Numbered from the stretch's first letter, positions 6,833 through 59,825 are shown. The stretch is 64,000 bases of DNA from Thermoanaerobaculia bacterium (GCA_963666565.1 OY762911.1:2784001-2848000); one strand, 5' to 3'. Translations and numbers: made by a program. Notes: generated by a model not told the origin, from the letters alone.

Positions 6833-6851
6833 GTATCCGGAGGATCCCTCC

Positions 6852-9953: not shown

Positions 9954-9960
9954 GAGTGCC

Positions 9961-11335: not shown

Positions 11336-11374
11336 CGGCGATCCGTGAAGATTGCGCCCGCTTCGACCAGTGGA

Positions 11375-11760: not shown

Positions 11761-11854
11761 GCTGCAAAGCGACGTGATCTGGAGACCCAGAGCCGCTGCC
11801 TCGCTCCGTACAGGTCCACTTCGTCGCCTGCGCGTGGAGCCCAGTCGCGACGGT

Positions 11855-12037
11855 ATGGGTCTGCAGAAGACGATGATTCACTTGTTCGGGATCAAGTGTG
11901 CCGACGAGATCGAAGCATGCGGCACTTCGGCGGCTGATCTCTGTCGCATGGCCGGCATGAGCCACACCTATGGCACGGAGATTCGCAATGGCTGCCGCCT
12001 CGCCCGCTTCGTGGAGATCGTTCCCGGCCGGCTGTGA
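11855..12037 (+). CDS. Small HTH-like protein or fragment
   Basis: MIHLFGIKCADEI...AGMSHTYGTEIRNGCRLARFV resembles a recalled small HTH-like family (IHLFGIKY...YxTEIxKG); unverified. Confidence 0.4.
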   Translation: MGLQKTMIHLFGIKCADEIEACGTSAADLCRMAGMSHTYGTEIRNGCRLARFVEIVPGRL

Positions 12038-38119: not shown

Positions 38120-38599
38120 TCAGGCGATGCCGAAGAACGAGCGGGCGCGTTCCAGGACGGCGGCGTCCACCTCTTCGTAGCCGTGGTCCTCGGCGAACTT
38201 TTCGATACCCGCGACCGCCGAGGCGCGGACGATGTCCGGGATGTTGGCGAGCCGCTCGCGGGCCTCGGCGGTCCATGGAATGCCCTCCGGGCCGCCGTTG
38301 CCGCTCTCGACCGGGCTGGCGTTCTCCCCGGCCCGTGTCCCGGTCATCGGAACGCCCATGTCGGCCAACATGCCGGTGAACGGGCACTTCGACGCGGCCG
38401 CGGCCGTCTCGGGATCTTCCGTTGTGCCGATCTTCACGCCGAGCGATCCGACCACCTGAGTCTCGTGTGGGTTCGTCATCATCGCCATCTCGGCTGAGCA
38501 GGCGGGGCAGGCGTAGACCAGTGCGACCGAGCCGCCCTCGGGGCCGATCGCGTGCTTGAGCTTCATCTGCTCGTCGCAGGGTACGCAGAGGAACTTCAT
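38120..38599 (-). CDS. Small CxxC/CxxC protein with PCP_red-like domain
   Basis: CVPC..CPAC, KCPF, WTAEARERLANIPDIVR...IEKFA. Confidence 0.75.
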   Translation of the reverse strand: MKFLCVPCDEQMKLKHAIGPEGGSVALVYACPACSAEMAMMTNPHETQVVGSLGVKIGTTEDPETAAAASKCPFTGMLADMGVPMTGTRAGENASPVESGNGGPEGIPWTAEARERLANIPDIVRASAVAGIEKFAEDHGYEEVDAAVLERARSFFGIA

Positions 38600-44695: not shown

Positions 44696-46858
44696 TCAGG
44701 CTTCCGGTTCGCCGGCCTTGCGCTTCTCGTCCAAGGCCGACATCAGGCCGACCTCGTTCAGGTACGTGCCGGCCTTCGCGTCCTTCGCTGCCTCGACCTG
44801 CGCCTGGCTCGCGCCGGCTTCGGCGAGAGCGGAGAAGGGGCACCTGCCGGCGCCCTCCGCGGCCTTCGTCTCAGCCTCGGCGACCGCGGCCGCCTGGTCG
44901 CCGTCGCCCTTGCCGATCTCGTAGGCCGCGATCATCTGCTCCATCAGCTCGTGGCCGAGCGCGATGCCTTCCTCGACCGTCTTGATGCCGATCTCCGGGA
45001 CGTGCTTCTCGCGGGCCACGAGCTCGACGCGCTCCTGGGTGCGGTCGCGCATGAAGCCGGCGGGAACGCGGAGAATGCGCTCGACCGCTTCGGACGACCA
45101 CTCGAAGGTCGAGAGCAGCGGCACGCGGTCGTCGTCGCGGGCGATCAGCTTGCGCTCGTCCGCGGGCGCTTCGGCGCCGCCGGCGCCGTTGCCGTTCGCC
45201 CCGGCGGCCTCGCGGGCCTCGATCGTCACCGGCTCGCCCGTTTCGTCCTCGATCATCGCGCGCGCGAACTCGAAGGTAACGGTCGGCAGCTTGCTCATCC
45301 GCGCCTTCTTCTCGATCCGCGCCTTGGCGCGGCGGCGGCGGTAGAGGTCCTCGATCGTCTTGAGGGCGAGGCGGGCGTCGGCGGTCCACTTCAGCTTGCG
45401 GCCGTCGTAGGTCGTCTCGACTTCCAGGCCGCCCTCCATCTCGGCGATCCGGTCGAGCATCTCCTCGGTGATCCGCTCGAAGGACTCGCTGCCGCAGACT
45501 GCGCAGCGCACCGGGTCCGGCTCGGCCGACGTGACGCCGCACTTCTTGCAGATGAAGGTCGGCCGGCTGCGCGCGAGCTGCAGGGCGACCTTCTCGGCCA
45601 GGGCCTCCGTCTCACGGGCGGTGTACTTCGGCATGTAGCGGTCCATCGCCTCGTCGAGCACGTCGGAGGAGATCACGCTGTGGCCCTGCTCGACCGCCAG
45701 GCGGTAGAGGGCGGTACGCGCGATGCCGCGCACCTGCTCCGGAACGCGCTTGAAGCGCTCCTCGGCTTCGGGCGTCCAGCGGATGCTCTCCTCGGCCTTG
45801 ACGTCGAGTTCCGGGTACTCCAGCCGGGTGGTCAGGAGCAGGTCGCAGGGGCAGGCGCGGAGCAGGTTCTCGGCGTTGCTGCCGAGACCGGTCTCGCTCT
45901 CGTCGCTGTGGACGCCGACACGGCCGACGACCAGCATCCACGGGTCGATCTTCCTTGCGTGGTCGAGGACCTTCTGGAACGCCTTGCCGTCGAGGAGCGT
46001 CTTCGTCAACTCGACGCCGACCTCGGTCGCCATCGTCTCCGCGACGTCCAGGTGGGACTGGTAGATCTGCGCCAGACCGGTGTCGATGATCTCCTCGTGG
46101 AGCTGGTTCTGCTCCTCGAAGCGGAAGATCTTCGCGGCGCGCTCGGTCAGCACGTTGACCACGCCCTTGAACACGGAGTAGTGGAGGTACGGGTCGTAGA
46201 CGGAGATCGCCTCGACCTTCTTGCCGAACGTCTTCGCCAGGTCGATGGCCGTCATCAGGGCGCCGAAGGACTGGGGCGAACCGTCGACGCCGACCAGGAT
46301 CGTGTCCCGGACCGGCGCTTCGGCGTGGCTGCCGTTGCCGTTGCCGTTCGTCCCGTGCGCGCGGGCCGGCAGGCTCTTGATGACCAGCACGTCCCTGTCG
46401 GCGGTGCGGGCGACCCGCTCGCAGACCGAGCCGATCTGGGTGTCGCGGACGCGGCCGATGCCCATCACGCCGAGCACGGTCAGGTCGTAGCCGGACTCGC
46501 GGATGTCGCGCACGATCTCCACGTGGTGCTTGCCGTCCATCATCTTCGGCTCGAACTCGAGCCCGGCGTCGTCGCAGACCGCCTTCATCGGCTCGAGGTA
46601 GCTCTCGGAGATGAGCTCAAGCCCCATCGTGATGAGGGAGTCGTGGATCTTCCGCTGGCGGTCGAGCTCCGTCTCCTCGAGGTACTCGTCCGGGAGGGTG
46701 TACTCCATCTGCTTGAACCGGTAGTCGTGCATGCTGGCCGCGTAGACGTGGCAGCCGACCATCGTGGAGTCGAACTTGCGGCCCAGTTCGACCGCCGAGG
46801 CGATCGCCTGGTTCGAGTAGTCCGAGTTGTCGACGGGGACGTAGATCGTCTTGTACAT
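44696..46858 (-). CDS. Multidomain protein: two USP domains, three PCP_red-like domains, Zn-ribbon
   Basis: MYKTIYVPVDNS and ILVGVDGS with GSVCE/GSNAE; three W.xEA...P motifs; CKKC..CAVC; C-terminal RCPF. This is the 3' part of track ORF 44696..48556. Confidence 0.82.
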   Translation of the reverse strand: MYKTIYVPVDNSDYSNQAIASAVELGRKFDSTMVGCHVYAASMHDYRFKQMEYTLPDEYLEETELDRQRKIHDSLITMGLELISESYLEPMKAVCDDAGLEFEPKMMDGKHHVEIVRDIRESGYDLTVLGVMGIGRVRDTQIGSVCERVARTADRDVLVIKSLPARAHGTNGNGNGSHAEAPVRDTILVGVDGSPQSFGALMTAIDLAKTFGKKVEAISVYDPYLHYSVFKGVVNVLTERAAKIFRFEEQNQLHEEIIDTGLAQIYQSHLDVAETMATEVGVELTKTLLDGKAFQKVLDHARKIDPWMLVVGRVGVHSDESETGLGSNAENLLRACPCDLLLTTRLEYPELDVKAEESIRWTPEAEERFKRVPEQVRGIARTALYRLAVEQGHSVISSDVLDEAMDRYMPKYTARETEALAEKVALQLARSRPTFICKKCGVTSAEPDPVRCAVCGSESFERITEEMLDRIAEMEGGLEVETTYDGRKLKWTADARLALKTIEDLYRRRRAKARIEKKARMSKLPTVTFEFARAMIEDETGEPVTIEAREAAGANGNGAGGAEAPADERKLIARDDDRVPLLSTFEWSSEAVERILRVPAGFMRDRTQERVELVAREKHVPEIGIKTVEEGIALGHELMEQMIAAYEIGKGDGDQAAAVAEAETKAAEGAGRCPFSALAEAGASQAQVEAAKDAKAGTYLNEVGLMSALDEKRKAGEPEA

Positions 46859-46929: not shown

Positions 46930-48708
46930 TCAGACGGCCGGCGCCTCGGCGGCGACGACGGCGTCGCCCGCGCCTTCCTCGCCGGCCGCCTTCTGGCGCG
47001 CGCGGCGGCGGACCAGGAACACGACGGCCAGCTCGAGAACGAGCACGATCAGGGCGGCGCGAAGCACGGGGCCGGCCACGGCCTGCTCGACGCTCGGTTC
47101 GGTGTAGACGTAGAACCAGGACGACAGCGCTCGCTTGTTGCCGCGTTCGCGGTTGAAGCCGTCCCAGACGCTGAAGGCGACCGGCGTGTACTGCTCTTCG
47201 GCGAAGCTGACGCCGGCTCGCGACGAGCGCCGCCGCTTGTACGTCACGGTCCACGCGCCCTGGTCGTACGACGTTACGGCCTCGACGATGTCCGCTTCGG
47301 TCGCTTCGATCGCGTCGCTGCCGCGCCCCCGGAACGTGTCCGCGACCCCGTAGGTCAGGTTGACGAACCAGAGATCGACCGGGTTCTGGGCGTCGCCGTA
47401 GAGGAAGTACGGTTTGAGTTCGGGAGTCTCTTCGGGCGCCAGCGTCGCCGGGAACTGCAGCGCCACGGCGTCGGAGAACTCGGCGCCGCCGGCGCCCGCG
47501 TCGGCGGTTCCGAAGAAGTCGTCGCCGCCGTCGCCGAAGAAGTCGTCGCCGCTGTCGCCGAAGAAGTCGTCTTCCGCCGGTGCTTCCTCGCCGCCGAAGT
47601 CGCCGAAGAAGTCGTCGGAGTCGCCAGCGTCGTCGTCCGCATCGCCGCCGATGCCGTTGTCCTCGTCCCACATCGGCACTTCCAGGCTCGGGCTGTTGCG
47701 GCCCGAGGTGTCGGCGCGCAGATCGTTCCAGCGGACCCGGAAGGCGATCTCGTCGCGGTTGTAGACCGCCTGGGCCTCGATCGAGGTCACGGAGGGGAAG
47801 AAGTTCCGCCCCGGTTCGGTGATCTGGCCGACCAGGGGGAACCGGGTCGTCGGCGCGGCCTCGAACAGCGCGTCGAGCGATTCTCCGTCCTGCAGGTCGA
47901 TCGGCTCCTCCGAATAGACCGCCGTGATCAGGGTGCCGTAGTTGGGCTCGTCCGCGTCGCCCAGGGAGTAGACGTAGTTCACCAGGTGCTGGCGATCCTC
48001 GACTTCGAGCGAGTCCGCGTAGGAGGGCATCGGCGTACCGTTCAGCCCGGTCGAGAACGTGCGGTAGATGTCCTCCTTGGTCGGTCCGCCGCGGTAGGTC
48101 CAGCGCTGGGTCAGGTCGGCGACCTTGATCGGGTCGCCCTTGTCGTTGACCAGGGTCGGCGCCGACGCGCCGTCGCCCCGTCCGACCTCGCCGTGGCAGG
48201 CGGCGCAGCCCTGCTCCTCGTAGACCACGCGGCCGCGGGCGATCGACTCTTCGGTCGATTCGAGAGGCCGGGGAATGTCGATCGGCTCGCCGTAGCGGTC
48301 GGGATTCTCGAAGTCGGCCGAGAAGGACTTGATGTAGTAGATGACGTTGTCGATCTCGGCGCTCGTCAGGTTCGGCCAGCCCGGCATCGAGGTGTAGGGG
48401 GCGCCGATCTCGATGATCCGGCGCAGGTCGTCGTCCGTCGGCAGCATGCCGTTCGGCGTGGTGCGGAACTTGTACGTGCCCGTCGTGAAGTCGCGCGGCT
48501 TCGGCTTGACCCGGGGCGTGGCGTAGCCGTTGCCGTCGCCAGTATCGCCGTGGCACTGGCCGCAGTACTTGTCGTAGACGACCTTGCCGGCCGCTTGCTG
48601 CTCCTCCGTGCCCAGGTCGACCTGGGCGTTGGCCGGTAGCGCCACGAGCAGAGCGACGGCAGCGAGCGTTGCCGCGGCCTGAGTGCGTCGGTTGGCGTGC
48701 GCGGTCAT
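46930..48708 (-). CDS. Diheme cytochrome c fused to an ethylbenzene-dehydrogenase-gamma-like (DOMON-like) domain, C-terminal membrane anchor
   Basis: Signal peptide; CGQCH and CAACH; FSDAVALQFP, PVAFSVWDG..RERGNK; C-terminal TM. Confidence 0.82.
   Translation of the reverse strand: MTAHANRRTQAAATLAAVALLVALPANAQVDLGTEEQQAAGKVVYDKYCGQCHGDTGDGNGYATPRVKPKPRDFTTGTYKFRTTPNGMLPTDDDLRRIIEIGAPYTSMPGWPNLTSAEIDNVIYYIKSFSADFENPDRYGEPIDIPRPLESTEESIARGRVVYEEQGCAACHGEVGRGDGASAPTLVNDKGDPIKVADLTQRWTYRGGPTKEDIYRTFSTGLNGTPMPSYADSLEVEDRQHLVNYVYSLGDADEPNYGTLITAVYSEEPIDLQDGESLDALFEAAPTTRFPLVGQITEPGRNFFPSVTSIEAQAVYNRDEIAFRVRWNDLRADTSGRNSPSLEVPMWDEDNGIGGDADDDAGDSDDFFGDFGGEEAPAEDDFFGDSGDDFFGDGGDDFFGTADAGAGGAEFSDAVALQFPATLAPEETPELKPYFLYGDAQNPVDLWFVNLTYGVADTFRGRGSDAIEATEADIVEAVTSYDQGAWTVTYKRRRSSRAGVSFAEEQYTPVAFSVWDGFNRERGNKRALSSWFYVYTEPSVEQAVAGPVLRAALIVLVLELAVVFLVRRRARQKAAGEEGAGDAVVAAEAPAV
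47510..47616 (-). repeat. Coding tandem repeat DDFFG x4
   Basis: CCGAAGAAGTCGTC at 47510, 47534, 47558 (24-nt period) and 47603. Confidence 0.85.
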
Positions 48709-49526
48709 CAGTGCTGCCCCAGAGCGCGCGGCTCGTAGCCGTTGAAGTCGTAGATGAACAGGTTGACGTCCCACATCTCCTCGGCGGTCAGGAACTTCTC
48801 CCAGGCCGGCATGGCGCTGTCCCAAGGTGTGCCGCCTGCTGGCATGCCGGGAGCGCCCTTGGCGATCCGCCAGTGAACGAACGAGGATTGCAGGGCTGGC
48901 AGCGTGCCGACGTCGTTGAAGTTGCTGGGCACCGGGTTCAGGCCGTGGGCGAACATGCCGTCGCCTCCCATGCCGTCGCCGTGGCACCAGAAGCAGTTCT
49001 CGTAGTAGACGCGGCGGCCGTTCTCCAGGTGCTTCCCGTACAGCTCCGGGTCGTCGTGCTTGTAGTGGAGGTACGGGTTGTCGGCCGTCGCCATGTCGAT
49101 CGTCTCGTCGTGAACGGTGAGTTCAGTGGGCGGCGGCGGATGGATCTCGCGGCCGAATCCGGGCGCCTCGAGCGGCATGGTCAGGTCGGCGTAGGCGTTG
49201 TAGGCAGCCAGCGCCGGAAGCGCGACGAGGAGTCCCGCCAGGGCGAGGCGATAGCGCGGTTCGAGGATCAGCCGCTTGATGGGCTGCACCGTCTCGGCCA
49301 GCCGCTCGCGGCTCGAAGACGCGTAGGTGACGAGCGCCAGCCCGGTGATCGCCAGGTAGATCGTTGCGACGGACTGCGGGATCGGCACCACGAAGCCGAA
49401 CTTGAAGAAGGCCCACAGGCCGACCAGACTGTAGAGGAGCCAGGCGAGGGTGTGGGCCCGCCGCCAGACGAGCAATCCGCCGATCGCGGCCAGGGCGAGA
49501 ACAACAGGAAGGTTGAGTCCCCACAT
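48708..49526 (-). CDS. Membrane-anchored monoheme cytochrome c
   Basis: About 4 N-terminal TM helices, CFWCHGD, distal SAMPAW. Confidence 0.85.
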   Translation of the reverse strand: MWGLNLPVVLALAAIGGLLVWRRAHTLAWLLYSLVGLWAFFKFGFVVPIPQSVATIYLAITGLALVTYASSSRERLAETVQPIKRLILEPRYRLALAGLLVALPALAAYNAYADLTMPLEAPGFGREIHPPPPTELTVHDETIDMATADNPYLHYKHDDPELYGKHLENGRRVYYENCFWCHGDGMGGDGMFAHGLNPVPSNFNDVGTLPALQSSFVHWRIAKGAPGMPAGGTPWDSAMPAWEKFLTAEEMWDVNLFIYDFNGYEPRALGQH

Positions 49527-49528
49527 GG

Positions 49529-50014
49529 TCAGTATCCGAGTTCAGTGTCCAGGGTCACGGTCGGCGTTCCGCCCAGACTCTGCAACCAGGCAATCACCGC
49601 TTTCATTTCGTCTTCCGAGAGGCTGATCGGCGGCTGGTCTATCGGCTGCATTCCATCGGCAAAGCCGGGAACGATGAACGCCGCCGGTTCGTAGAGGGAC
49701 TGGGCCAGGTACTCGAGGCCGGAGAGCCCTTCGATCTGGGTCGCTGCGCGGGCGCCGATGCCGTCCAGGTCCGGGTAGCGGAGCGGCCCGCTCTGGCCGA
49801 CGGTGTGACAGCCGACCAGGCACTGTCCCTTGCCGCTGGCGAGTTCCGCGCCGACCGCGACCAGATCCTCCGTCGTCATCTCGGCGCTGATCAGCACGGG
49901 CGGCGGCGGATGGGCCTCCTTCTGCGGCACGATCTGGCCCAGGTACATGTAGAAGGCCGTCGTACCGAGCACGAGCAGGACCAGCCGCAGGGGCATGGGG
50001 ACGCTCAGCTTCAT
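49529..50014 (-). CDS. Small cytochrome c with atypical CxxxCH motif
   Basis: GKGQCLVGCHTVG, PDLDGIG, YLAQSLYEP..FIVPGF..GMQP. Confidence 0.75.
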   Translation of the reverse strand: MKLSVPMPLRLVLLVLGTTAFYMYLGQIVPQKEAHPPPPVLISAEMTTEDLVAVGAELASGKGQCLVGCHTVGQSGPLRYPDLDGIGARAATQIEGLSGLEYLAQSLYEPAAFIVPGFADGMQPIDQPPISLSEDEMKAVIAWLQSLGGTPTVTLDTELGY

Positions 50015-51942
50015 GCCGCCTGCCCCCCTTCGAGCCGGTCGCGGCCGTCAGCGACCGGCTTCGGTTCCCAGTCCTTCTTCCCGCCCAGACTGCTGAGCCA
50101 GAAGACGACGCCGAGCAGGCCGAAGAAGATGAGGACAGTGACGGACACGACTTGCGTCGCGAAGCCGAGGGTCGGCGTGTAGGCGTCCGGGGACGTGTCG
50201 AGGATCACGCCATAGACGTGCCACTCCTGGCGCAGCCCGGAGCGGACGTATCCCATCAATCCCATCAGCCAGGTGAAGCTGAGCGCGATGAAGATGAGAG
50301 CGTACTGGGAGACCGCCGGCATCCTGCCCCATTTGGTCTCACCCGACTGCGCGGCGTTGCGGTACAGGGGCAGGTCGATCACCGTGATCACGACCAGGGC
50401 CGCGAGCACCGAGTAGACCTGCGGGATCGCGAAGCGTATGCGTACATCCGCGTCCACGTAGTAGCCGTAGACGCCGTAGAAGATGACCAGGGCCGCCGCC
50501 GAGGAAAACACGATCGCCTGGGCGCGGGCGAGGAGCTGCCTGTGCGGGTGGACGGATTGCCTGCCGGTCCGCCGGTAGAGCAGGAAGCTCATGTAGGTCG
50601 AGAGGATCAGGATGTTGACCGCCGTGTTCTTGGCCGACATCTGGCCCAGGTAGGAGAGCTGCGGGTGGCTGCTGCCTCCCATCGCGGCGATCTCGGATAC
50701 CGACGAGATGGCGTAGCGCGGCGTCGCCCAGACGGCGAAGCAGAGGGCGATCGCGATCAGCAGCCACTTGATGAACTTCTGGAAGTGGACGCCGCCCTCC
50801 ATGCGGCCCATCCCCAGCCAGAGGTAGTAGTTCGCCCCCAGGAACAGGTTGCCGATGAGGGCCGCCTGGATGACGAACAGCCAGGAGAAGGTGCCGCCCA
50901 TCATCTGGATGCCCAGGGTCTGGCTGAACGCGTAGATTTCGGCGGCGAGGTAGTAGCCCGCGAACGGCAGCGGGAGGAAGGCGATGATGGCGACGAAGTT
51001 GCCGACGTAACCCATCCAGTCGAAGTGGGCCTTCTCCTCGTCCGTCTTCGCCTGCAGGTAGCGGAAGGCGGCGTAGGCGGCGGCGATCGAGCCGCCGAAC
51101 GCGACGTTGGCGATGATCCGGTGGATGTTGATCGGCATCCAGGTGAAGTTGAAGAAGGCGTCTCGCAGGCTCAGCAGGGCGCCGCTCTCCGAGACGGCGG
51201 AGACGAAGTCCGGGACGCCGTCGCCGTCCACGTCGTCGCGCTTGCCCGGCGACATCATGAAGGTGAGCCAGGCGTTCGCGATGAACATGATCGCCGTGCC
51301 CACGATGTTCAGCATGAAGCCCAGGAAGAGGTGCATCTTCGGTCCGAACTTGCCCCAGCCGTAGTAGTAGCTGTAGAGGAACAGCGCCTCCAGGAAGAAC
51401 AGCAGGACGTAGGGCAGGAACGTCGGCGAGAAGATGTGCATCAGGTAGTTCGTGAACTTCGGGTAGAGGATGATCAGCCCGAAGGTCAGGAACGCCCCGA
51501 AGGTGGCGGTCATCGAGAACGAGACGGAGAGCAGCTTGGTGAACTCGTACGCCAGCTTGTTGTACCGCTCTTCCTTCTTCACGTAGCCGACGAACTCGAT
51601 GATGAAGGCGAACAGCGGCACCGCGAGGACGAACGCCGCGAAGAGCAGATGGAGCTGCGCCAGCACCCAGACGGTGACCCGGCTGCCGACGAACGGGACC
51701 GTGCGGTACTCGGCCTCCTCGTAGGGCCTGGCCCTCGCCTCGGCCTCGTCCGCGGCCTGCTCGTCGGCGATGCCCTGCTGCCGCGGCGTGAGTTCGGCCT
51801 CGCCTCGCTCTTCCAGGGCCACGGCCTGCCGGTCCGGCTGGCGGTACTCGTTGTCGACGAGGAAGCCGCCGAGCCGCACCGTGGCGATCACGGACACGAA
51901 CGCGAGAACGCCGATGCCGAAGATGATCCTGTTTCTGTTCAT
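50011..51942 (-). CDS. Cytochrome bd subunit I-like (CydA-like) polytopic membrane protein
   Basis: AQLHLLFAAFVLAVP (helix I His), FFLEALFLYSY, NIHRIIAN (second His), MGYVRSGLRQEWHVYG (variant of GRQPW). No cydB nearby. Confidence 0.82.
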   Translation of the reverse strand: MNRNRIIFGIGVLAFVSVIATVRLGGFLVDNEYRQPDRQAVALEERGEAELTPRQQGIADEQAADEAEARARPYEEAEYRTVPFVGSRVTVWVLAQLHLLFAAFVLAVPLFAFIIEFVGYVKKEERYNKLAYEFTKLLSVSFSMTATFGAFLTFGLIILYPKFTNYLMHIFSPTFLPYVLLFFLEALFLYSYYYGWGKFGPKMHLFLGFMLNIVGTAIMFIANAWLTFMMSPGKRDDVDGDGVPDFVSAVSESGALLSLRDAFFNFTWMPINIHRIIANVAFGGSIAAAYAAFRYLQAKTDEEKAHFDWMGYVGNFVAIIAFLPLPFAGYYLAAEIYAFSQTLGIQMMGGTFSWLFVIQAALIGNLFLGANYYLWLGMGRMEGGVHFQKFIKWLLIAIALCFAVWATPRYAISSVSEIAAMGGSSHPQLSYLGQMSAKNTAVNILILSTYMSFLLYRRTGRQSVHPHRQLLARAQAIVFSSAAALVIFYGVYGYYVDADVRIRFAIPQVYSVLAALVVITVIDLPLYRNAAQSGETKWGRMPAVSQYALIFIALSFTWLMGLMGYVRSGLRQEWHVYGVILDTSPDAYTPTLGFATQVVSVTVLIFFGLLGVVFWLSSLGGKKDWEPKPVADGRDRLEGGQAA

Positions 51943-51955
51943 CTGTTTCCCGGCG

Positions 51956-52630
51956 CTACTGGCGCGCCGCCCGCTCCGCCTGCATCGTTCTGCGTTCCTG
52001 CTGCAGCTCGCGGACGTAGGCGACGACCGCCCAGCGATCCTCGACGGTGAGCGGATAGCGGTAGCCCGCCATCAGGCCGACGCCGTTCGTGATGACGTCG
52101 TACATCCGGCCGTCGTTGTAGGTGGCGATCCGCTCGTCGTGGAGCGAGGCCGTGGGCGTGCTCGCCCGCTCGAACAGGATGCCCTGGCCCGTGCCGCGCT
52201 CGTCGTGGCAGGGCTGGCAGTAGATCTCGTAGCGGCTCGCGCCCCGGGCCAGCAACGCGTCGGTGACAGGGATGGGCGACGTCTCCAGGAAGTAGCCCTC
52301 GTCGTCGCGGCCGTGCAGGCGGCCGTGATCGACGTCGAGCTGCCCGCGCGCCACGGTGCCCGCCACCGGCTGGCGCATCGCCATCCCGTCGTAGAAGAAG
52401 GCGCTCGCCTCCTGCGGGTCGTAGCGCTCCTGGTAGTCCATGTTCGGGTTCGGGTGGATGGGCGGGAACGGGGAGGGCATGCCGCGGCAGCCGAGGAGGA
52501 GCAGGACGGCGGCCAGAGCGGCGCCGGCGTGGCGGCCGGCGGGCTCTTTCGAGCGGGTCGGAGGACCCGCGCACCCAGTGTGGAGCGGGTTCCAGGCGAG
52601 CCGGAGCCGCCGGTGGATCGCCAGGCGCAT
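51956..52630 (-). CDS. actE: ActE-like monoheme cytochrome c lipoprotein
   Basis: LLGC lipobox, MDYQERYDPQEAS.FF.DG..MRQPVAGTVARG, CQPCH, DRWAVVAYVRELQ. This is the 3' part of track ORF 51956..55483. Confidence 0.85.
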   Translation of the reverse strand: MRLAIHRRLRLAWNPLHTGCAGPPTRSKEPAGRHAGAALAAVLLLLGCRGMPSPFPPIHPNPNMDYQERYDPQEASAFFYDGMAMRQPVAGTVARGQLDVDHGRLHGRDDEGYFLETSPIPVTDALLARGASRYEIYCQPCHDERGTGQGILFERASTPTASLHDERIATYNDGRMYDVITNGVGLMAGYRYPLTVEDRWAVVAYVRELQQERRTMQAERAARQ

Positions 52631-55600
52631 CAGTGCGCGTCCTCGCCGCCGTGGTCCTCGGCGGGCGGCGGCGCCGGCGTGATCTCGCGGTTCGGATGGC
52701 GGAGCTTCGCGAGATAGGTCGTCCGCGGCTTCGTGTGCAGGTCGTCGAGCAGGTTGTAGTTGCGGGGGCTCGCCTTCGCCTGGGAAACGCCGCTCTCGGC
52801 GTCCGTGACGTCGCCGAAGCGGATCGCCTCGGCCGGGCAGGCCTGCTGGCACGCGGTGACGACGTCGCCGTCGGCCAGGGCCCGCCCGTCCTGCTTGGCG
52901 TCTACCTTGGCGCGGCTGATCCGCTGCACGCAGTACGTGCACTTCTCCATGACGCCGCGGGAACGGATCGTCACGTCCGGGTTCTTGCCCAGCTTCATCA
53001 CCTCGGGCGTGTCCTTGGTGAAGTTGAAGTAGTTGAAGCGCCGCACCTTGTAGGGGCAGTTGTTCGAGCAGTAGCGGGTGCCGATGCAACGGTTGTAGAC
53101 CATCGCGTTCAGCCCTTCGCTGTCGTGTACGGTGGCCGCGACCGGGCAGACCTGTTCGCAGGGCGCGTTCTCGCACTGCATGCAGGGCACCGGCTGGAAG
53201 CTCGTCTGCGGCTCGGACGGGAGGTCGTGGACGAGGTCCTGGAGCATGCCGCCGAACTCGCCCTCGTCGGAGAAGTAGCGGTCGATGCGGAGCCAGTGCA
53301 TCTCCCGGCCCTCCATCACCTGCTCCTTGCCGACGATCGGCACGTTGTTCTCGCTCTGGCAGGCGATCATGCAGGCGTTGCAGCCGACGCAGGCGTTCAG
53401 GTCGATCGTCATGCCCCACTGCGGCGAATCCCGGTAGGTCCACTCGTTCCACATCGAGTTCTCGTGGGGCTTCTCGCTGTGGGCGGTCGCGAAGTCGGGA
53501 TGCTCCTCGAAGTAGTCGAGATCGGCCTCGCGGACGATCGGGCGTCCCTCCATCGAGTGGTGGTCCTGGGTCTGCGCCAGCGGATACGTGCCGCCGGTCG
53601 GACTGAGCGTTCCGCGGGCGAGATCGGGCGCCTCCGAGGTGCGCAGGAGATAGGCGTTCCGCCCGGGTGCGCGGCCCTCGGCGTTGGCGGCGCTCGCGAT
53701 CCGGCCCGCGAAGTCGCGGCCGTAGCCGAGGTCGAGCGTCACCGAGTTGTCGGCCTGTCCCGGCACTTGCCAGACGGGCAGTTCCAGTTCGCGCTCGCCG
53801 GAGGTCACCGTGACGAGGTCTTCGTTCTCCAGGCCCAGCGCGCCGGCGGTGGCCGGGCTGATCAGGGCGGCGTTGTCCCAGGTCAGCTTGGTCATCGCGT
53901 CCGGCAGCTCCTGGAGCCAGCCGTTGTTGGCGAAACGGCCGTCGTGGACCGCCGGGGAGCATCGGAAGACGATCTCCAGCTCGTCGCCGGAGGCGATCGG
54001 CGGGGCGGCGTCGCCGGCGGCACGCACCGCGGCCGCGGCGTCCTCGGCGGTCACGGCGGAAAGATCGGCTGTCGGCGCCGCGCTGCCGTCGAGCAGGCCG
54101 TCGTGGAGCACCTTGCGCCAGGCGATCTCGAACTCCGAGAGGGCAACGGGGAACGGCAGGGACATCGGGTCGACCGGCACGGACTCCTCGTCCGGCGCGG
54201 CGCCTTCGCCTTCGCCGTCCGCGGCCGCTTCGGCGTCCGCTCCGGCTTCCGGCGCGGCCGCGGAGGCAGCGTCTTCCCCGCCGCCCTCGTCGAGCGGCAG
54301 GCCGAGGATCTCCGACCAGGTTTCGCGCACCAGATCGCGGCCGTCCAGGTCCTCGCCCAGCGCCGCCAGCGCCAGCACCTCGACGAGGCTCTTGGCGCCG
54401 TACAGCGGCTCGATCAGGGGCTGGACGACGCTGGCCGTGCCATCGGTGGCGCGGGCGTCGCCCCAGCTCTCCAGGAAGTGGGCGAGGGGCACGTGCCAGC
54501 GCGCGTGACGGCTCGTCTCGTCCCGGTAGGCGCCGACGTGGACGACGGCGCCCGCTTCGCCCAGGTTCTCCAGGGCGGCGGCGAAGTCGAGATCGGCGGG
54601 GGCGCTGTAGGCGGGGTTCGCGCCCAGGATCAGCAGGCGGTCCACCGAGCCCCGGTCGATGGCCGCCGCCAGGTCGGCGAGGTCCGCGTCGCTGGAGCTG
54701 CCGAGGTCGGGCGTCCGGTGGTACGTCACCGTGGCGCCGGCGTTGCCGAGCGCCGAGTTCAGCGCGTAGACGGCGGCGTGGACGGCCGCCGGCTGCCGGT
54801 CGCCGGCGACAATCAGGCCGGCGCCGCGGTGGGCGAGGAGATCCTGGGCCACCGCTTCGACCCACGCGTCGTCGATGTCTTCGGCTGGCGCGCCGGCGTC
54901 GAGGGGCAGGTCCAGGCCGCCGGCCGCGAGGGCACCGCCGAGCCGGGCCACGAAGGCCGCGACCCGGCCGCTCTGCACCCGCAGGCGATGGTCGGCGTTG
55001 GCCGCGGTGGTCGAGTGGACGCCGTCGACCGCGTAGTGCCGTAGCGGGCTGCCGCCGCCTTCCTCGTTCACGCGCCGGGCCCGGGCGTAACCGCGCAGGT
55101 TGCGGACGCCGTCGCCCTCGGTGGCGAGGAAGTCGGAATCCAGGGTCAGCAGGACCTTCGCCCGGTCCACGTGGCGGAGCGCGTGGACCCGCTCGCCGGC
55201 GGCGAGCGCCGTGCCCCGGTCGGCGTTCTCCTCGCTGACCGGCGCCCAGGTCACCCAGCGCGCCTGCGGATAGCGGTCGAGCAGCGCTTCCTTGAGCCGG
55301 ACCAGGGTCGGCGAGGAGGACGGCTCGGCGAGGATGGCGAAGCCCGTGCCGTCGGCGGCGGGGCCGAGGTCGCCCTCGGTCCAGGCGGCCGCGAAGTCGT
55401 CCCAGGTGGACGCCTCGTCGCCGAAGCGTACGGACTTCGACCGGTCCGGGTCGTACAGGTCGAGAATGGAGGACTGAGCCCACGTACTCGACGCGCCCTC
55501 CGAGAAGGGGTGGGACTCGTTGCCCTCGACCTTCGTCGGCCGCCCTTCGTGGCTCTCCACGACCAGGCCGAGCGCCCGGCCGCCGAGCGGCATCGTCGTC

Positions 55601-55899
55601 GCGTACAGCAGCGGAACGCCCGGGACCATGCCCTCCGGAGCGTCGACGTAGGGGACGATGTGCTCGACCGGGCGGCGGACGATGTCGCAGCCGGTCAGGC
55701 CGGCGAGCGACGCCGCCCCGCCCAGCATGGCCAGCGCGCTCCGCCGGCTGACGCCGTCCCGCAGCAACTCCGGCGGCGCCTCGGACGCGCCCTCCGGGAA
55801 CTCCCGGTGGAGGAGATCGACGGTTCGGGAGTCGCCCCGGATCTGCTCCAGGCTGCGCCAGTAGGTTCTCTCCGGCCGCTTGCCGTTGCCCGCGCTCAT
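52630..55899 (-). CDS. actB: ActB: Tat-exported molybdopterin-oxidoreductase-like domain fused to 4Fe-4S domains
   Basis: YWRSLE, SRRSAL..LTGC, GRPTKVEGN..HP, NNGWLQELPD, CVGCNAC, CMQC..PC..VCP, CIGTRYCSNNCP, RGVMEKCTYC. Confidence 0.92.
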   Translation of the reverse strand: MSAGNGKRPERTYWRSLEQIRGDSRTVDLLHREFPEGASEAPPELLRDGVSRRSALAMLGGAASLAGLTGCDIVRRPVEHIVPYVDAPEGMVPGVPLLYATTMPLGGRALGLVVESHEGRPTKVEGNESHPFSEGASSTWAQSSILDLYDPDRSKSVRFGDEASTWDDFAAAWTEGDLGPAADGTGFAILAEPSSSPTLVRLKEALLDRYPQARWVTWAPVSEENADRGTALAAGERVHALRHVDRAKVLLTLDSDFLATEGDGVRNLRGYARARRVNEEGGGSPLRHYAVDGVHSTTAANADHRLRVQSGRVAAFVARLGGALAAGGLDLPLDAGAPAEDIDDAWVEAVAQDLLAHRGAGLIVAGDRQPAAVHAAVYALNSALGNAGATVTYHRTPDLGSSSDADLADLAAAIDRGSVDRLLILGANPAYSAPADLDFAAALENLGEAGAVVHVGAYRDETSRHARWHVPLAHFLESWGDARATDGTASVVQPLIEPLYGAKSLVEVLALAALGEDLDGRDLVRETWSEILGLPLDEGGGEDAASAAAPEAGADAEAAADGEGEGAAPDEESVPVDPMSLPFPVALSEFEIAWRKVLHDGLLDGSAAPTADLSAVTAEDAAAAVRAAGDAAPPIASGDELEIVFRCSPAVHDGRFANNGWLQELPDAMTKLTWDNAALISPATAGALGLENEDLVTVTSGERELELPVWQVPGQADNSVTLDLGYGRDFAGRIASAANAEGRAPGRNAYLLRTSEAPDLARGTLSPTGGTYPLAQTQDHHSMEGRPIVREADLDYFEEHPDFATAHSEKPHENSMWNEWTYRDSPQWGMTIDLNACVGCNACMIACQSENNVPIVGKEQVMEGREMHWLRIDRYFSDEGEFGGMLQDLVHDLPSEPQTSFQPVPCMQCENAPCEQVCPVAATVHDSEGLNAMVYNRCIGTRYCSNNCPYKVRRFNYFNFTKDTPEVMKLGKNPDVTIRSRGVMEKCTYCVQRISRAKVDAKQDGRALADGDVVTACQQACPAEAIRFGDVTDAESGVSQAKASPRNYNLLDDLHTKPRTTYLAKLRHPNREITPAPPPAEDHGGEDAH

Positions 55900-56543
55900 C
55901 GGTGGCACCCCGTGCAGTCCTCGGGCGGCGCCAGCGCCCGTTCCGCGATCGCCAGTTCGGCGAAGGCCTCGTGGTCCCCGGTCGGGATCCACTCCATGTC
56001 GGTCACCGCGTCCAGCGGCCGCAGGTGGGGACCCGGGTCGCGGTGGCAGTCGAGGCACCAGCTCATGCTCAGAGGCTCCGCCTGGTACACGACCTCCATC
56101 TCGTGGACCGGACCGTGGCAGGTCCGGCAGCCGACGCCGGCCGCGACGTGGACGCTGTGATCGAAGAAGGCGTAGTCGGGCAGGTTGTGGATGCGCACCC
56201 AGCGCATCGGACGGTCCTGTTCGACGCTCTTGCGGATCGGTTCGAGGAGTTCGCTCTCGCGCGCGGCGACGTGGTGGCAGTTCATGCATACCTGGGTCGG
56301 CGGGACGTTCGAGACCGCCGACTCCTCGACGGAGGCGTGGCAGTAGCGGCAGTCGAGGCCGAGCTCGCCGACGTGAAGTTCGTGGCTGTAGGGCACGGGC
56401 TGCGCCGGCCGGTAACCGACGTCGGTGTACTCCGGGGAGAAGAAGTACCAGACGCCGCCCACCGCGACGGCGCCGGCGACGGGCAACGCGACCGCCGCGT
56501 ACAGCGGTAGCCGGAGGGTCCACTTGGGGAAGATCTGAGCCAA
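55896..56543 (-). CDS. actA: ActA: pentaheme cytochrome c with N-terminal TM
   Basis: (M)AQIFPKW; QPVPYSH..H; CRYCH, CMNCH, CRTCH, CLDCH, CTGCH. TTG start inferred. Confidence 0.92.
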   Translation of the reverse strand: MAQIFPKWTLRLPLYAAVALPVAGAVAVGGVWYFFSPEYTDVGYRPAQPVPYSHELHVGELGLDCRYCHASVEESAVSNVPPTQVCMNCHHVAARESELLEPIRKSVEQDRPMRWVRIHNLPDYAFFDHSVHVAAGVGCRTCHGPVHEMEVVYQAEPLSMSWCLDCHRDPGPHLRPLDAVTDMEWIPTGDHEAFAELAIAERALAPPEDCTGCHR

Positions 56544-56597
56544 GTATCCGTACCTTGAAGCAGGGTACGAAGCCCTGCCCGATCCGAAGTCGCGCGG

Positions 56598-56626
56598 AGT
56601 GTACAGCGTGCCAACGGGGCGGTCAA
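56598..56626 (-). promoter_or_regulatory. Sigma70-type promoter of the act/bd-like operon
   Basis: Minus strand TTGACC, 17-nt spacer, TACACT with TG extension, about 55 nt before actA. Confidence 0.65.
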
Positions 56627-56664
56627 AGGACGATCCCAGGATCGCGCCGGGATAGGGTCGCGCC

Positions 56665-57321
56665 ATGTCCGAAGGAGGCCCTTCCGGCGCGGATGGAGAG
56701 CCGGGAGAACCCCGCCGGCGCTTCCTGAATCCCTGGTTTCTCGCGGCCCTGGCCGGTCTCGTCCTGATTCCGGCGATCAGGCCGCTGCTCCGGTTCGAGC
56801 CGGATCCGCCGCCGGTGCTGCGGCAGTTGCCGGAGTGGCGGCTGGTGGACCAGAACGGAGAGTCGTTCGGCAGCGGCGACCTGGCGGGCGAGGTCTGGGT
56901 CGCCTCCTTCCTGTTCACGCGCTGCGCCACGGTCTGTCCCCGGCTCACCGCCTCCGTGCGGCAGTTGCAGCGCCGCTACCGGGAAGAGGGCGTCGAGGGC
57001 GTGCGGCTGGTCAGCTTCTCCGTCGACCCGGAGCACGACACGCCGGAAAGGCTGCGCGACCATGCGCGCAGCCGGCGGCTCGACCTGGAGCGCTGGAGTC
57101 TCGTCACCGGCGCCGAGCGGGACGTGCGCTCGGTGGTCGTCGAGGGCTTCGCCCTGCCGATGGGGGAGCGGCTGGACCTCGCCGGCGGTCTGGTCGACGT
57201 GGCGCACGCGGCGCGACTGGCTCTCGTCGACCGCGACGGCGGCGTCCGCGGCTACTACGCCTCGGACGAGGTGGGCCTGGACGAAGTCTTCCACCGGACC
57301 CGGCAGATTCTCGCGGAGTAG
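56665..57321 (+). CDS. SCO1/SenC family copper chaperone
   Basis: FLFTRCATVCP (CxxxC), SVDPEHDTP, conserved His (VAH), LVDRDGGVRGYY. Confidence 0.9.
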   Translation: MSEGGPSGADGEPGEPRRRFLNPWFLAALAGLVLIPAIRPLLRFEPDPPPVLRQLPEWRLVDQNGESFGSGDLAGEVWVASFLFTRCATVCPRLTASVRQLQRRYREEGVEGVRLVSFSVDPEHDTPERLRDHARSRRLDLERWSLVTGAERDVRSVVVEGFALPMGERLDLAGGLVDVAHAARLALVDRDGGVRGYYASDEVGLDEVFHRTRQILAE

Positions 57322-57327
57322 CGCCGG

Positions 57328-57467
57328 CCGGGTGCGCGGGTCTTCCGACCCGCTCCGGGCGGCGTCGCGGAGCGGCGCAGCCCGGACAGTGGGGCCGCCG
57401 GCCAAAGGCCGGCGACGTCTATCCGGCCGCCTGCGGCGGCAGCGGGTCGGAAGACCCGCGCACCCGG
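57328..57467. repeat. Inverted REP pair (REPIN/BIME-like)
   Basis: 27-nt perfect inverted copies of AGCGGGTCGGAAGACCCGCGCACCCGG between convergent genes. Confidence 0.85.
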
Positions 57468-58588
57468 TCGGTTCGTTCCCGCGGTCCCGGGGGTTCCATC
57501 TCCAGGATCCACTGGCGGATGAGGGCCACGGCTTCGACGTCGACCAGGCCGCGTCCGATCTCGGGCATCGCGATGCCGGGGTGGGTCGACTCGAGCCGGT
57601 AGAGGAGGATGGACTCGTCCGGCTTGCCGGGGACCACGGCATAGATGCGGTCCCCGGTGCCGAGGCCGGCGGCTACGGGGTGCTTGTATAGGCCCAGCCG
57701 GGTCCGGTCCTCGTGGTCCTTGCGGAGATCGAGCCCCGAGGTGCGGCCGCTGCCCGTCAGGTTGTGGCAGTGGGCGCAGTTGATGTCGAGCCAGGTTCGG
57801 GCCCGCTCGTCGACGCTGCCGGAAGACGCCGCGTTCCAGACCGGCGCGCGCGGAGCTTCGGCGGCCGGCGGCGCCCCTTCCAGAAAGCCGATGCGCCGCC
57901 ACCGCTCGAGCTGGTTGTCCCGAACGGTCGGTCCGTCGGGGGCGGAGTAGTCGAAGTGCCGGTTCAACTGCGCCGCCTGGGGACCGATCGGCAGCACGCG
58001 CTCGCCGTCCGTCCGGTGGCAGGTCTTGCACTGGTTCGCGTTCGGCACTCGGTAGGTGTGGTCGATCCTCGCGCCCTCGGCGTCGATCCACGACACCTCG
58101 AGCGGCCCGCCGACGATCTGGAGTTCGGCGTCCGTCAGCCCGGCGTTCCAGATGTACGGCAGCCCGATCCAGCCGTCCTCCTCGTGGACGAGCAGCCTGG
58201 TTTCCAGGGGCCGCAGGCCTTCTTCGGGGACCCGGAAGTCGGCGGGGTAGGCGAACGTCTTCGCGATCACCGTGCCCACCGGGAACTCGAACGGGCCGGT
58301 TTCCCGGTAGTGCGCCGGGACGACGGCGCCTCCGGGGCCATCCGGCAGGCGCATGAAGCGGAACTTCAGCGCGTAGTCCGAGAACAAAGCCGTGTTCAGG
58401 TCGTACGGCTCGACACCGGCGGCCGGGATGTGGTCTGCCTGCTCGCCAACGAACAGGCCCCAGGCCGAGAGTCTCTCCGGGTAGCGGCTGAACGGCCCCT
58501 GGTCGGAACCGGCCTCCCCGCCCGCGCAGCCCGCCAGCACGAATGCGGCAAACGTCAGTGCCGCGTGTTGTGCGCTAGGGAGCGCCAC
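57419..58588 (-). CDS. SO2930/HNE_0200-type diheme cytochrome c lipoprotein
   Basis: LAGC, YDLNTALFSDYALK.RF, FPVGTVIAKTF, LETRLL, CKTCH, CAHCH, MPEIGR. Confidence 0.85.
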   Translation of the reverse strand: MALPSAQHAALTFAAFVLAGCAGGEAGSDQGPFSRYPERLSAWGLFVGEQADHIPAAGVEPYDLNTALFSDYALKFRFMRLPDGPGGAVVPAHYRETGPFEFPVGTVIAKTFAYPADFRVPEEGLRPLETRLLVHEEDGWIGLPYIWNAGLTDAELQIVGGPLEVSWIDAEGARIDHTYRVPNANQCKTCHRTDGERVLPIGPQAAQLNRHFDYSAPDGPTVRDNQLERWRRIGFLEGAPPAAEAPRAPVWNAASSGSVDERARTWLDINCAHCHNLTGSGRTSGLDLRKDHEDRTRLGLYKHPVAAGLGTGDRIYAVVPGKPDESILLYRLESTHPGIAMPEIGRGLVDVEAVALIRQWILEMEPPGPRERTDRVRGSSDPLPPQAAG

Positions 58589-59825
58589 CGGTCGCCGCGC
58601 CGAGGTCGACCGGCTGGGGCACCGCCGGCAGCGCGCCCCGGTGCGCCGCCAGGTCCGTGCTGACGTTCGGTTCGCCGCCGGCGAAGACGGAACCGAGGTC
58701 GAGGTTCACGAAGTCGGCGTCGCCGTTGTTCTCGATGTAGAGCCACAGTTCCGCCGGCACCTCGCCGTCGACCAGCTTGTCCGGGTTGGAGACCCCGTCC
58801 CACACGATGTCCGGGAAGGCGCCGCCCGCGAGGGCGACGAAGGCATCCGCGAAGTCGCCGTTCGGGCCGTCGCCGCCGCCGACGAACTCGTTGCCGTGAA
58901 TGTAGACGCCCTCGGTGTACGGGTCGTAGTCGGGATCGTTGTAGCCGCGGCCGGTCGACAGGTAGGAGATGACCGCGAGGTTCGAGTTCCGGTTGTCGCG
59001 GATCCGGTTCTCGAACAGCTCGACGTTGTCGCTCGCCATCACGATGATCCCCGAGCCGGCCGGGATCGTCGACACGATCGCGCCTTCCTTGCCGAAGTTG
59101 GGCAGGTTGTTGTCCGTGATGTCGTTGTCGTAGACGCGGGCGTCGCGGCCGTCCTTGACCGGCAGCTCGGGCAGGGAGAAGACGAGCAGGCCGCCGGTGT
59201 TGCCGTGCGCCCGGTTTCCGTAGACATCGGCGCCGGTCGTGTTCTCGATCTCGATGCCGGCCACGTTCTCCCACGCCTCGTTGCGCCGGACCACGACGTT
59301 GGCGGACTGGCCGACGTAGATGCCGGCGTCCGAGGCGCCGCGCACCTTGCTGTCCTCGATCAGCACGTTCGTCACCTGGACCGGGTAGAGCCCGTAGGCG
59401 CCGTTGTTCGTGTCGGGTCCGTTCGTCCACTCGACCCGAACGCTCCGGAAGGCGGCGCCGGTGGTGCCCTCGACCTTGATTCCGTCGCCCCTCGTGTTTT
59501 CGACCGCGAGGTTCTCGACGGTGAAGTCGTCGGCGGTGGCGAGGATCCCCTCGCCGCCCGTGCCGGGGGCCTGCGCGGAGAAGTCGAGAACCGTCTCGTC
59601 CATGCCCTGGCCGCGCAGGGTCACGCCCTCCGTGTCGAGCGAGAGAGTGGCGTCGAGTTCGAAGCGGCCGGCGGCGAGCTCGATGACGGCGCCGGGCTCG
59701 GCCACGAGCAGCGCTTCCTGGAGCGTCCGGTGGTCGTTGTCGCCGGGGCGCAGCGTGGCGTCCTCCTGTGCGCAGGCGGCGAGAGCGAGCGAGCAGACGG
59801 CGGCAGGGAGGATGAGGTGCTTCAT
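58575..59825 (-). CDS. Parallel beta-helix repeat lipoprotein (usual partner of the SO2930-type cytochrome)
   Basis: NGAYGLYPV, GASDAGIYVGQS, NVAGIEIEN, NTGGLLVF.LP. Confidence 0.85.
   Translation of the reverse strand: MKHLILPAAVCSLALAACAQEDATLRPGDNDHRTLQEALLVAEPGAVIELAAGRFELDATLSLDTEGVTLRGQGMDETVLDFSAQAPGTGGEGILATADDFTVENLAVENTRGDGIKVEGTTGAAFRSVRVEWTNGPDTNNGAYGLYPVQVTNVLIEDSKVRGASDAGIYVGQSANVVVRRNEAWENVAGIEIENTTGADVYGNRAHGNTGGLLVFSLPELPVKDGRDARVYDNDITDNNLPNFGKEGAIVSTIPAGSGIIVMASDNVELFENRIRDNRNSNLAVISYLSTGRGYNDPDYDPYTEGVYIHGNEFVGGGDGPNGDFADAFVALAGGAFPDIVWDGVSNPDKLVDGEVPAELWLYIENNGDADFVNLDLGSVFAGGEPNVSTDLAAHRGALPAVPQPVDLGAATGGAP

Follow-up and report, generated by a model that had tools for sequence, protein, structure and literature searches.

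A split alternative complex III operon that continues into a cytochrome bd-like module in a Thermoanaerobaculia genome

A seven-gene respiratory operon lies at 46930-56543, on the minus strand, of a 64,000-nt stretch of DNA from a Thermoanaerobaculia bacterium (GCA_963666565.1 OY762911.1). This stretch, referred to here as the window, is positions 2,784,001-2,848,000 of a 4.79-Mb genome assembled as one contig and 97% complete, and is ~70% G+C. The operon encodes three subunits of alternative complex III (ACIII), ActA, ActB and ActE, followed by a membrane protein related to the CydA subunit of cytochrome bd oxidases and by three further cytochromes. The ActC, ActD and ActF genes are present elsewhere in the genome, as a set of their own. 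The explanation favoured here, at a probability of roughly 0.6, is that the electron-carrying "wire" of a split ACIII is co-transcribed with a bd-like terminal oxidase fed by cytochrome c, so that the two modules would work in series.

The gene order is actA-actB-actE-cydA-like-cyt c-membrane cyt c-c2EbdC (cyt c, cytochrome c), all in the same orientation. Overlaps of 4 nt (ATGA) join actA to actB and the cydA-like gene to the first cyt c gene, overlaps of 1 nt join actB to actE and the membrane cyt c gene to c2EbdC, and the intergenic gaps are 13 nt (actE/cydA-like) and 2 nt. The products carry 10 c-haem motifs (5+1+1+1+2), nine CxxCH and one CxxxCH. A match to the sigma-70-like promoter consensus, TTGACC-17-TACACT (56598..56626, minus strand), is found 55 nt 5' of the actA start. 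As a consensus match only it is, taken alone, weak evidence for a putative promoter; it is the sole promoter-like match in the 13 kb between 44400 and 57400, where shuffled sequences lead one to expect 0.5. Pfam and NCBIfam profiles match no NrfD, ActD or CydB gene in the operon. The first-pass annotation of this region had described it correctly as to gene content, coordinates, haem motifs and promoter-like site, and also in reporting that ActC, ActD, ActF and CydB are missing from it. The same order, with a Usp-domain gene after c2EbdC, was seen in 9/9 loci fetched from nine related genomes, one of which (locus L028) ends at a contig edge and begins at actE, and the proteins of the actA-actB-actE-cydA-like order are 45-68% identical across families of the order. 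This conservation is far beyond chance.

The three Act proteins are readily recognized. ActA (55896-56543, minus strand; 215 aa, TTG start) is a pentahaem cyt c (Pfam Cytochrome_C7, 6e-13) with five CxxCH motifs and a single membrane helix, an N-terminal hydrophobic segment at residues 14-32; it is 37-49% identical to the product of the first gene in the actABCDEF clusters of relatives. ActB (52630-55899, minus strand; 1089 aa) has the character of a TAT-exported protein in which a molybdopterin-oxidoreductase-like domain is fused to a four-cluster Fe-S domain (Fer4 families, Molydop_binding); four Fe-S groups account for 15 Cys, and the protein also has a twin-arginine signal and a lipobox-like LTGC. 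It matches the NCBIfam TAT-variant MoCo domain TIGR04519 with 39.6 bits (cut-off 20.6) and also QrcC-like (1.6e-59) and QrcB-like (1.3e-19) families. Pfam gives no match in it to Molybdop_Fe4S4 (PF04879) or Molybdopterin (PF00384), both of which are present in a Qrc-like enzyme encoded elsewhere in this genome. No other full-length ActB is encoded in the genome, the next match being the Fe-S subunit of that separate Qrc-like cluster. ActE (51956-52630, minus strand; 224 aa) is a monohaem cyt c, probably a lipoprotein (Cytochrome_CBB3, 8e-12; one CxxCH), and is 28-42% identical to the product of the gene between actD and actF in canonical clusters. The marks of canonical ACIII, a pentahaem ActA with a helix, a TAT-exported ActB of Mo-less appearance and a monohaem ActE, are all kept. 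Together the three proteins would form a complete cofactor-bearing periplasmic arm, with five haems in ActA, three [4Fe-4S] and one [3Fe-4S] in ActB, and one haem in ActE.

The missing membrane subunits were found when the whole genome was searched. There are three NrfD-family loci, one of which (L005; ~3.558-3.561 Mb on contig G000:C1, G000 being the window genome) contains ActC (PF03916, 4.7e-26), ActD (PF11821, 5.9e-64, 215 bits) and an ActF homologue (35-56% identical to ActF-position genes), together with cupredoxin-like, COX1, COX3 and COX4 genes, one unassigned gene, and COX2. No actA, actB or actE is found beside this actCDF set, and its COX2 has no haem c motif. Because the window holds the sole full ActB and this locus the sole strong ActD, the genome's complement comes to exactly one ActA/B/E set and, 0.72 Mb from it, one strong ActC/D/F set. 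CydB (PF02322) has 0 matches in the 97%-complete genome, with the same search positive in 10/14 reference genomes, so that the absence first noted for the operon extends to the genome as a whole, and no NarG/NxrA-type gene was found above the cut-off. The genome encodes one haem-copper (aa3-type) oxidase, that adjoining actCDF, and one cytochrome b (bc-type; G000:C1:3581025-3581588, plus strand). The latter is ~20 kb from the actCDF-oxidase locus, which suggests a respiratory gene neighbourhood.

Two other features of these NrfD-family regions may be mentioned. The actCDF genes of L005 are flanked by genes for paralogous secreted proteins, 50% identical to each other (6929-7723, minus strand, and 11197-11997, plus strand, in locus coordinates). 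Both have a C-x2-H-x2-M motif, possibly a type-1 copper site, and Pfam gives for them only a CarboxypepD_reg-like beta-sandwich. The same gene follows the bd-like module in loci labelled Gemmatimonadota. A second region, L004 (G000:C1:1873000-1892999), contains at 4947-11100 (plus strand) the five-gene ACIII/Qrc-like cluster already mentioned, which encodes an ActA-like multihaem (pentahaem) cytochrome, a QrcB-like Mo subunit that has both the Fe4S4 and the Molybdopterin domain, an Fe-S subunit with 58% identity to the C-terminal part of ActB, an NrfD protein and a weakly ActD-like one. It was considered as a source of the missing ActC and rejected, the cluster being self-contained.

The orphan actCDF set and the operon occur together. 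A CydA-like protein 88-98% identical to that of the window is found in 24/24 same-genus genomes, and one 66-70% identical in 7/16 genomes from other genera of the order; ActD was found in 41/41 genomes. ActD surroundings were compared in operon-positive (G000, G026, G031, G033, G034, G036, G038) and operon-negative genomes (G025, G027, G028, G029, G030, G032, G035, G037), a count that leaves out G040 (operon present), G039 (operon absent) and the 24 other same-genus genomes. Orphan actCDF was seen in 7/7 of the former vs 0/8 of the latter. Each of the seven has exactly one actCDF-only locus, continuing into cupredoxin-like, COX1 and COX2 genes, with the COX1 of the other six 72-77% identical to that of the window genome. 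The six from other genera additionally carry one or two canonical actABCDEF-COX2-COX1 loci each, and in the eight operon-negative genomes all 11 ActD matches are within full actABCDEF clusters. Four genomes (G033, G034, G036, G038) have both halves on one contig, ~20-40 kb apart and on opposite strands; in the window's genus they are 0.37-1.14 Mb apart where both matches share a contig. All of the same-genus genomes (24/24) resemble that of the window in having one strong and one weak ActD match, and the genus is without a canonical ACIII locus.

Phylogenetic reconstructions place the orphan ActC sequences in one clade (SH-aLRT 97), and the split-type ActB sequences also group together, with one change and support of 64/87. 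Since actE has left its place between actD and actF, the split must be described as a rearrangement and not as a simple break. An explanation of the orphan actCDF set as the relic of a simple operon break was considered and found too simple, as actE moved with actAB; the conflict between the two trees, described further below, is not significant (p 0.255).

The CydA-like or bd-like membrane protein (50011-51942, minus strand; 643 aa) matches PF01654 at 1e-24, over profile positions 2-236 of 418 only, and is the only CydA-family protein of the genome (one PF01654 match). A profile of its family matches solved CydA chains (5doq_A, 3.7e-17; 6rko_A, 3.3e-7) over their first ~200-260 residues only, with alignments ending at CydA residues 196-257. 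There is no match past about residue 260, and the protein is therefore predicted to have no Q-loop. An AlphaFold2 model consists of an N-terminal anchor helix and 14 long helices (pLDDT 70.8, pTM 0.72); its ten best Foldseek matches, which are all those with E <= 0.001, are CydA chains, the best with E from 1e-9 to 1e-6, and CydB comes next. No CxxCH haem c motif is present in the protein. In the HMM alignment its H98, E185 and H274 occupy what we take to be the positions of E. coli CydA H19, E107 and H186. Homologue alignments show no variation at H274, and at H98 and E185 either none or conservation of at least 90%. The region presumed to correspond to E. coli M393 has no alignable counterpart. 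The protein would thus retain the haem-binding four-helix core, without the quinol loop and without CydB, and, as it does not have the quinol-binding part of CydA, it is on the evidence of these alignments not built to oxidise quinol.

Downstream of it are the three extra cytochromes. The first (49529-50014, minus strand; 161 aa) is a membrane-anchored monohaem cyt c (Cytochrom_C, 2e-5) with its CxxxCH at residue 65. The haem site is CxxCH in 82/86 related loci and CxxxCH in the four listed at 79-96% identity to the window; the longer motif amounts to one residue inserted in frame among the haem-binding residues, and part of the genus is fixed for it. The second (48708-49526, minus strand; 272 aa) is a polytopic membrane monohaem cyt c (Cytochrome_CBB3, 1e-8) with one CxxCH and several N-terminal hydrophobic segments. 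The third, c2EbdC (46930-48708, minus strand; 592 aa), joins a dihaem cyt c, with two cyt c stretches and two CxxCH, to an EB_dh domain of the EbdC/NxrC haem b type (PF09459, 4e-14), and has a C-terminal membrane helix, a hydrophobic segment at 548-566. It matches the EbdC family TIGR03477 at 3.5e-20, which is under the cut-off, and carries the only EB_dh domain of the genome. An NXR-type enzyme was considered as its partner and set aside, since no NarG/NxrA-type match in the genome reaches the cut-off (best E 1.2e-4). These proteins would complete a self-contained bd-like complex made up of the CydA relative, the two monohaem cytochromes c anchored in the membrane, and the EbdC-like dihaem-c/haem-b protein.

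That this four-gene module is an autonomous unit is indicated by its distribution. A search of 1.84 billion representative proteins gave 209 clusters at E <= 1e-30, and scanning a single genome per species gave 80 loci, with phylum labels taken from record titles. The labels are Thermoanaerobaculia, Vicinamibacteria, Polarisedimenticolia, Gemmatimonadota, Methylomirabilota, Rokuibacteriota, Rhodothermales, Myxococcota, Latescibacterota and Fibrobacteria, and the closest loci are labelled "Candidatus Multivorans" (Thermoanaerobaculia). In 62/62 loci with at least 5.5 kb of downstream flank, from about nine phyla, the cydA-like gene has cyt c-cyt c-c2EbdC behind it. The neighbours of the module vary by lineage. 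Where there is enough flank, actE is upstream of the cydA-like gene in 29/33 loci labelled Acidobacteriota, in keeping with the conserved linkage to actABE seen in all nine of the fetched loci; the lack of such linkage, which the first-pass annotation had named as a result that would count against it, was thus not seen. Among loci labelled Gemmatimonadota actE is upstream in 1/21, the exception being 68% identical to the window and possibly a mis-binned contig, and it is upstream in 0/10 of those labelled Methylomirabilota, Rokuibacteriota, Rhodothermota, Myxococcota, Latescibacterota or Fibrobacterota. The Gemmatimonadota-labelled loci link the module instead to cupredoxin-like, COX2 and COX1 genes (12/12 with enough flank), the cupredoxin-like and COX1 genes being downstream of it. 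One Myxococcota-labelled locus, L089, has two divergent bd-like modules back to back, each with a cupredoxin-like gene.

These results bear directly on the interpretation given with the first-pass annotation, that the operon encodes a true hybrid in which ActA, ActB and ActE dock on the CydA-like protein as both anchor and quinone or terminal-acceptor site, with ActC, ActD and ActF uninvolved. It would account for the tight translational coupling of actE and the cydA-like gene across a 13-nt gap, and for the conservation of the actA-actB-actE-cydA-like order, at 45-68% protein identity, in 29/33 Acidobacteriota-labelled loci; there being no CydB in the genome, the CydA-like protein also needs another partner. 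However, the orphan actCDF set tracks the operon (7/7 vs 0/8), and its cofactor-free products would have no electron outlet without ActB. The module keeps three cytochromes of its own and occurs, intact in 62/62 loci, without Act genes in other phyla, and the CydA-like protein is without the region that binds quinol in CydA, so that the proposed replacement of ActC and ActF as the membrane quinone module is not supported. Of the genes whose presence elsewhere, together with co-purification, was to count against a hybrid, actC and actF, with actD, do exist 0.72 Mb away, and cydB is absent. There is also a precedent in Chloroflexus, where an actABE operon is proposed to be served by actCDF encoded elsewhere (PMC9316378). 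A hybrid of this kind is quite unlikely.

In the favoured explanation, ActABE would assemble on trans-encoded ActC, which would provide the quinol site, and on ActD and ActF, all three being cofactor-free membrane partners. Electrons would pass from menaquinol by way of ActC to the ActB Fe-S clusters, the ActA and ActE haems, the three cytochromes, and finally the bd-like haem site and O2. The aa3 oxidase could receive electrons from the same ACIII as well, perhaps by way of the cupredoxin-like protein; in that case the cell would express each half of ACIII together with a different one of its two terminal oxidases.

Some indication of expression comes from sponge and marine metagenome RNA libraries (four runs from three studies), which contain contigs 90-99% alike to the region. 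In one run, designated X1, a single 4547-nt contig (~93% alike) spans every junction from the 3' end of actB to the 5' end of c2EbdC, and a further contig connects c2EbdC with the Usp gene. Both are compatible with co-transcription. Depth in the X1 bins at 53994-56982, covering the 5' part of actB and actA, is 0.3-3.5 vs ~50 elsewhere, a contig depth that cannot be used to rank the genes.

A closer association is conceivable, in which ActABE sits on ActCDF and the resulting ACIII is bound as a whole to the bd-like module, the cytochromes forming a fixed wire that makes a soluble carrier unnecessary. All three extra cytochromes are membrane-anchored, as a fixed wire would need, and co-transcription of the wire half with the oxidase would also fit. 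There is a parallel in Flavobacterium johnsoniae, where ACIII reportedly joins an aa3 oxidase in a supercomplex. The literature also includes papers on III-IV supercomplexes (PMC8361435) and on F. johnsoniae ACIII as the feeder of cytochrome aa3 (PMC8552683). Against contact, the linkage of the module to cupredoxin-like, COX2 and COX1 genes in Gemmatimonadota-labelled loci (12/12) shows that its partner varies. A supercomplex seems possible but doubtful.

The same architecture might also serve another acceptor, with the bd-like protein reducing NO, nitrite, H2O2 or chlorate-type oxyanions, or else collecting periplasmic electrons through the EbdC-like protein. EB_dh is known elsewhere as the subunit that transfers electrons in type II DMSO-reductase-family enzymes (TIGR03477, EbdC), and an AhbD/NirJ-like radical SAM gene that travels with the module, described below, hints at a non-standard haem. 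Set against this, the residues read as the H19, E107 and H186 positions are kept, the genome has neither a NarG/NxrA-type catalytic subunit nor another EB_dh protein, and the linkage of the module to a haem-copper oxidase operon in other phyla fits an aerobic role. An acceptor other than O2 is considered unlikely.

Several points weigh against the series arrangement ending in O2, and should be kept in view. The position that we take to be that of the E. coli haem ligand E99 aligns to a Tyr (Y178) in the CydA-like protein, as would suit a different acceptor. The RNA contigs derive from relatives, could contain some carried-over DNA, and fall short of proving a single transcript. Co-occurrence cannot separate a working association of ActABE with ActCDF from a history in which all three gene sets simply travel together. 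The split-type ActB is sister to the main canonical clade and the orphan ActC to a minor one, and because the trees place them differently the two halves may not share one ancestral operon; the ActC data do not reject the ActB topology (AU test, p-AU 0.255). Linkage to actABE is not obligatory, since four of the 33 Acidobacteriota-labelled loci (L070, L081, L082, L094) have no actABE upstream, and in L081 an RND efflux system takes its place. Nor is ACIII the sole possible quinol:cytochrome c route, given that the genome has a cytochrome b gene. Finally, O2 reduction by the bd-like (OR-N) family is itself a proposal ("implicate"), with no assay reported in the accessible portions of the relevant papers (10.1101/2021.01.16.426971; PMC12342949), which also leaves room for another acceptor.

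A probable eighth gene of the operon (44696..46858, minus strand; 720 aa) encodes two Usp domains (3e-29), two PCP_red domains (2e-21) and a zinc ribbon. It begins 71 nt downstream of c2EbdC, and PCP_red is the tetrapyrrole-binding domain of BchB. The gene is directly downstream of the module in 22/25 Acidobacteriota-labelled loci and upstream of the cydA-like gene in 12/13 of those labelled Gemmatimonadota. Two further minus-strand genes are possibly associated with the operon. One, 9 kb away (36731-38101), encodes a radical SAM/SPASM protein that has PCP_red at its C-terminus, and the other (38120-38599) is a small PCP_red gene. The best NCBIfam matches of the former are to AhbD haem b synthase (299.7 bits) and NirJ2 (277.6 bits), both under the cut-off, and the same gene type adjoins the bd-like module in loci labelled Gemmatimonadota (L110, 8202-9746), NC10 (L096, 6593-7912) and Rhodothermaceae (L123, 14881-16161). 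The AhbD/NirJ-like radical SAM protein and the Usp/PCP_red protein may constitute a haem-maturation set for the bd-like protein. A more far-reaching and rather speculative proposal is that ActABE is a detachable wire with two uses, docking on ActCDF to take electrons from menaquinol and also forming, by way of the membrane-anchored cytochromes, a fixed supercomplex with the bd-like module, the whole acting as a quinol:O2 oxidoreductase with a non-standard haem matured by the AhbD/NirJ-like system. This too is doubtful; if true, such a combination of ACIII with a Q-loop-less bd relative would be a respiratory architecture without described counterpart.

On the other side of the operon, a gene for an SCO1/SenC copper chaperone (56665..57321, plus strand; PF02630, 3.5e-24) is divergent from actA. 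Its position is probably inherited, as SCO also adjoins actA in several canonical actABCDEF-cox clusters. Upstream of the promoter-like site, at 57419-58588 and 58575-59825 (both minus strand), are genes for an SO2930-family dihaem cyt c (TIGR03806, above cut-off) and a NosD-like beta-helix protein. The SO2930-family gene was seen beside the operon in same-genus loci only.

These findings have several consequences. The same four-gene bd-like module is widespread beyond nitrifiers, in Acidobacteriota, Gemmatimonadota, Methylomirabilota and others, and the Acidobacteriota link it genetically to a defined upstream donor, the haem/Fe-S arm of ACIII, which offers a concrete electron path. The operon would in this way provide a handle on the uncharacterised bd-like oxidases. 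It is also a second and cleaner example of an ACIII whose genes are divided by function into a cofactor module and a membrane module. For annotation, the lesson is that an actABE operon without actC should not be taken for a new complex until the rest of the genome has been searched.

Compared with canonical CydAB (PDB 5doq, 6rko, 7ose), the CydA-like protein belongs to the same fold family and keeps the positions read as H19, E107 and H186, but it differs in having no CydB and no Q-loop, five or more extra helices, and a Tyr at the position read as E99; its donor, moreover, would be cytochrome c and not quinol. It comes closer to the bd-like oxidases proposed as the main terminal oxidases of nitrite- and manganese-oxidising Nitrospirota, and the mention in the first-pass annotation of such biochemically unsettled modules in nitrite oxidisers agrees with this literature. 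According to Murali, Gennis and Hemp, OR-N1 and OR-N2 are 14-helix proteins that lack a quinol site, and operons with OR-N2 often include no further CydA-like gene (10.1101/2021.01.16.426971). The NIDE0901-type bd-like oxidase, or TO_1 cluster, of Nitrospirota is described as clustering with a pair of cytochromes c and with a CISM gamma-type cytochrome b in the periplasm (10.1101/2021.01.16.426971; 10.1101/2021.11.15.468770; PMC12342949). The window module shares with these the 14 helices, the lack of a quinol site and of haem c in the CydA-like protein, a single CydA-like gene, and the same accompanying cytochromes, two of type c and a periplasmic one of type b (CISM gamma). It appears to match the OR-N2/TO_1 type, a label that refers to architecture and context and not to the authors' classifier. 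The differences are that its host is a heterotrophic-looking acidobacterium and that the module sits behind actABE; in Nitrospirales, ACIII (actABCDE) is described as adjoining OR-N5, not OR-N2 (PMC12342949). No account of actABE fused to an OR-N2 cluster together with an orphan actCDF-oxidase operon was found in the literature searched, which did not extend to Figure 1 and the supplements of the OR-N paper, where operon contexts are given and one may be shown.

On the ACIII side, the nearest comparison is with Chloroflexus aurantiacus, whose respiratory ACIII (Cr) operon is actABEG without actCDF and for which a proteomics study proposes that ActCDF from another operon serves both complexes (PMC9316378). 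There as here, ActA/B/E are encoded apart from ActC/D/F and the membrane subunits are proposed to come from elsewhere. In Chloroflexus, however, actCDF is within a second, complete act operon, whereas in the window genome it is an orphan without an actABE of its own, and the window actABE operon continues into a bd-like module. The Melioribacter genome paper, citing work on Rhodothermus marinus ACIII, distinguishes an electron-transfer module, ActABE, from a membrane or quinone module, ActCDFG (PMC3534657), and the split in the window genome follows exactly this functional ActABE/ActCDF line. Like the ACIII systems of R. marinus, F. johnsoniae and Roseiflexus, this genome has an NrfD-type ActC, an ActD (PF11821) and an ActF, with act genes beside those of a terminal oxidase; it differs from them in separating actABE from actCDF, which in those systems form one actABCDEF operon. 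The parts, and also a split actABE operon, were already known, and the conserved combination of actABE, an OR-N2-type module and an orphan actCDF set is a real variant on them.

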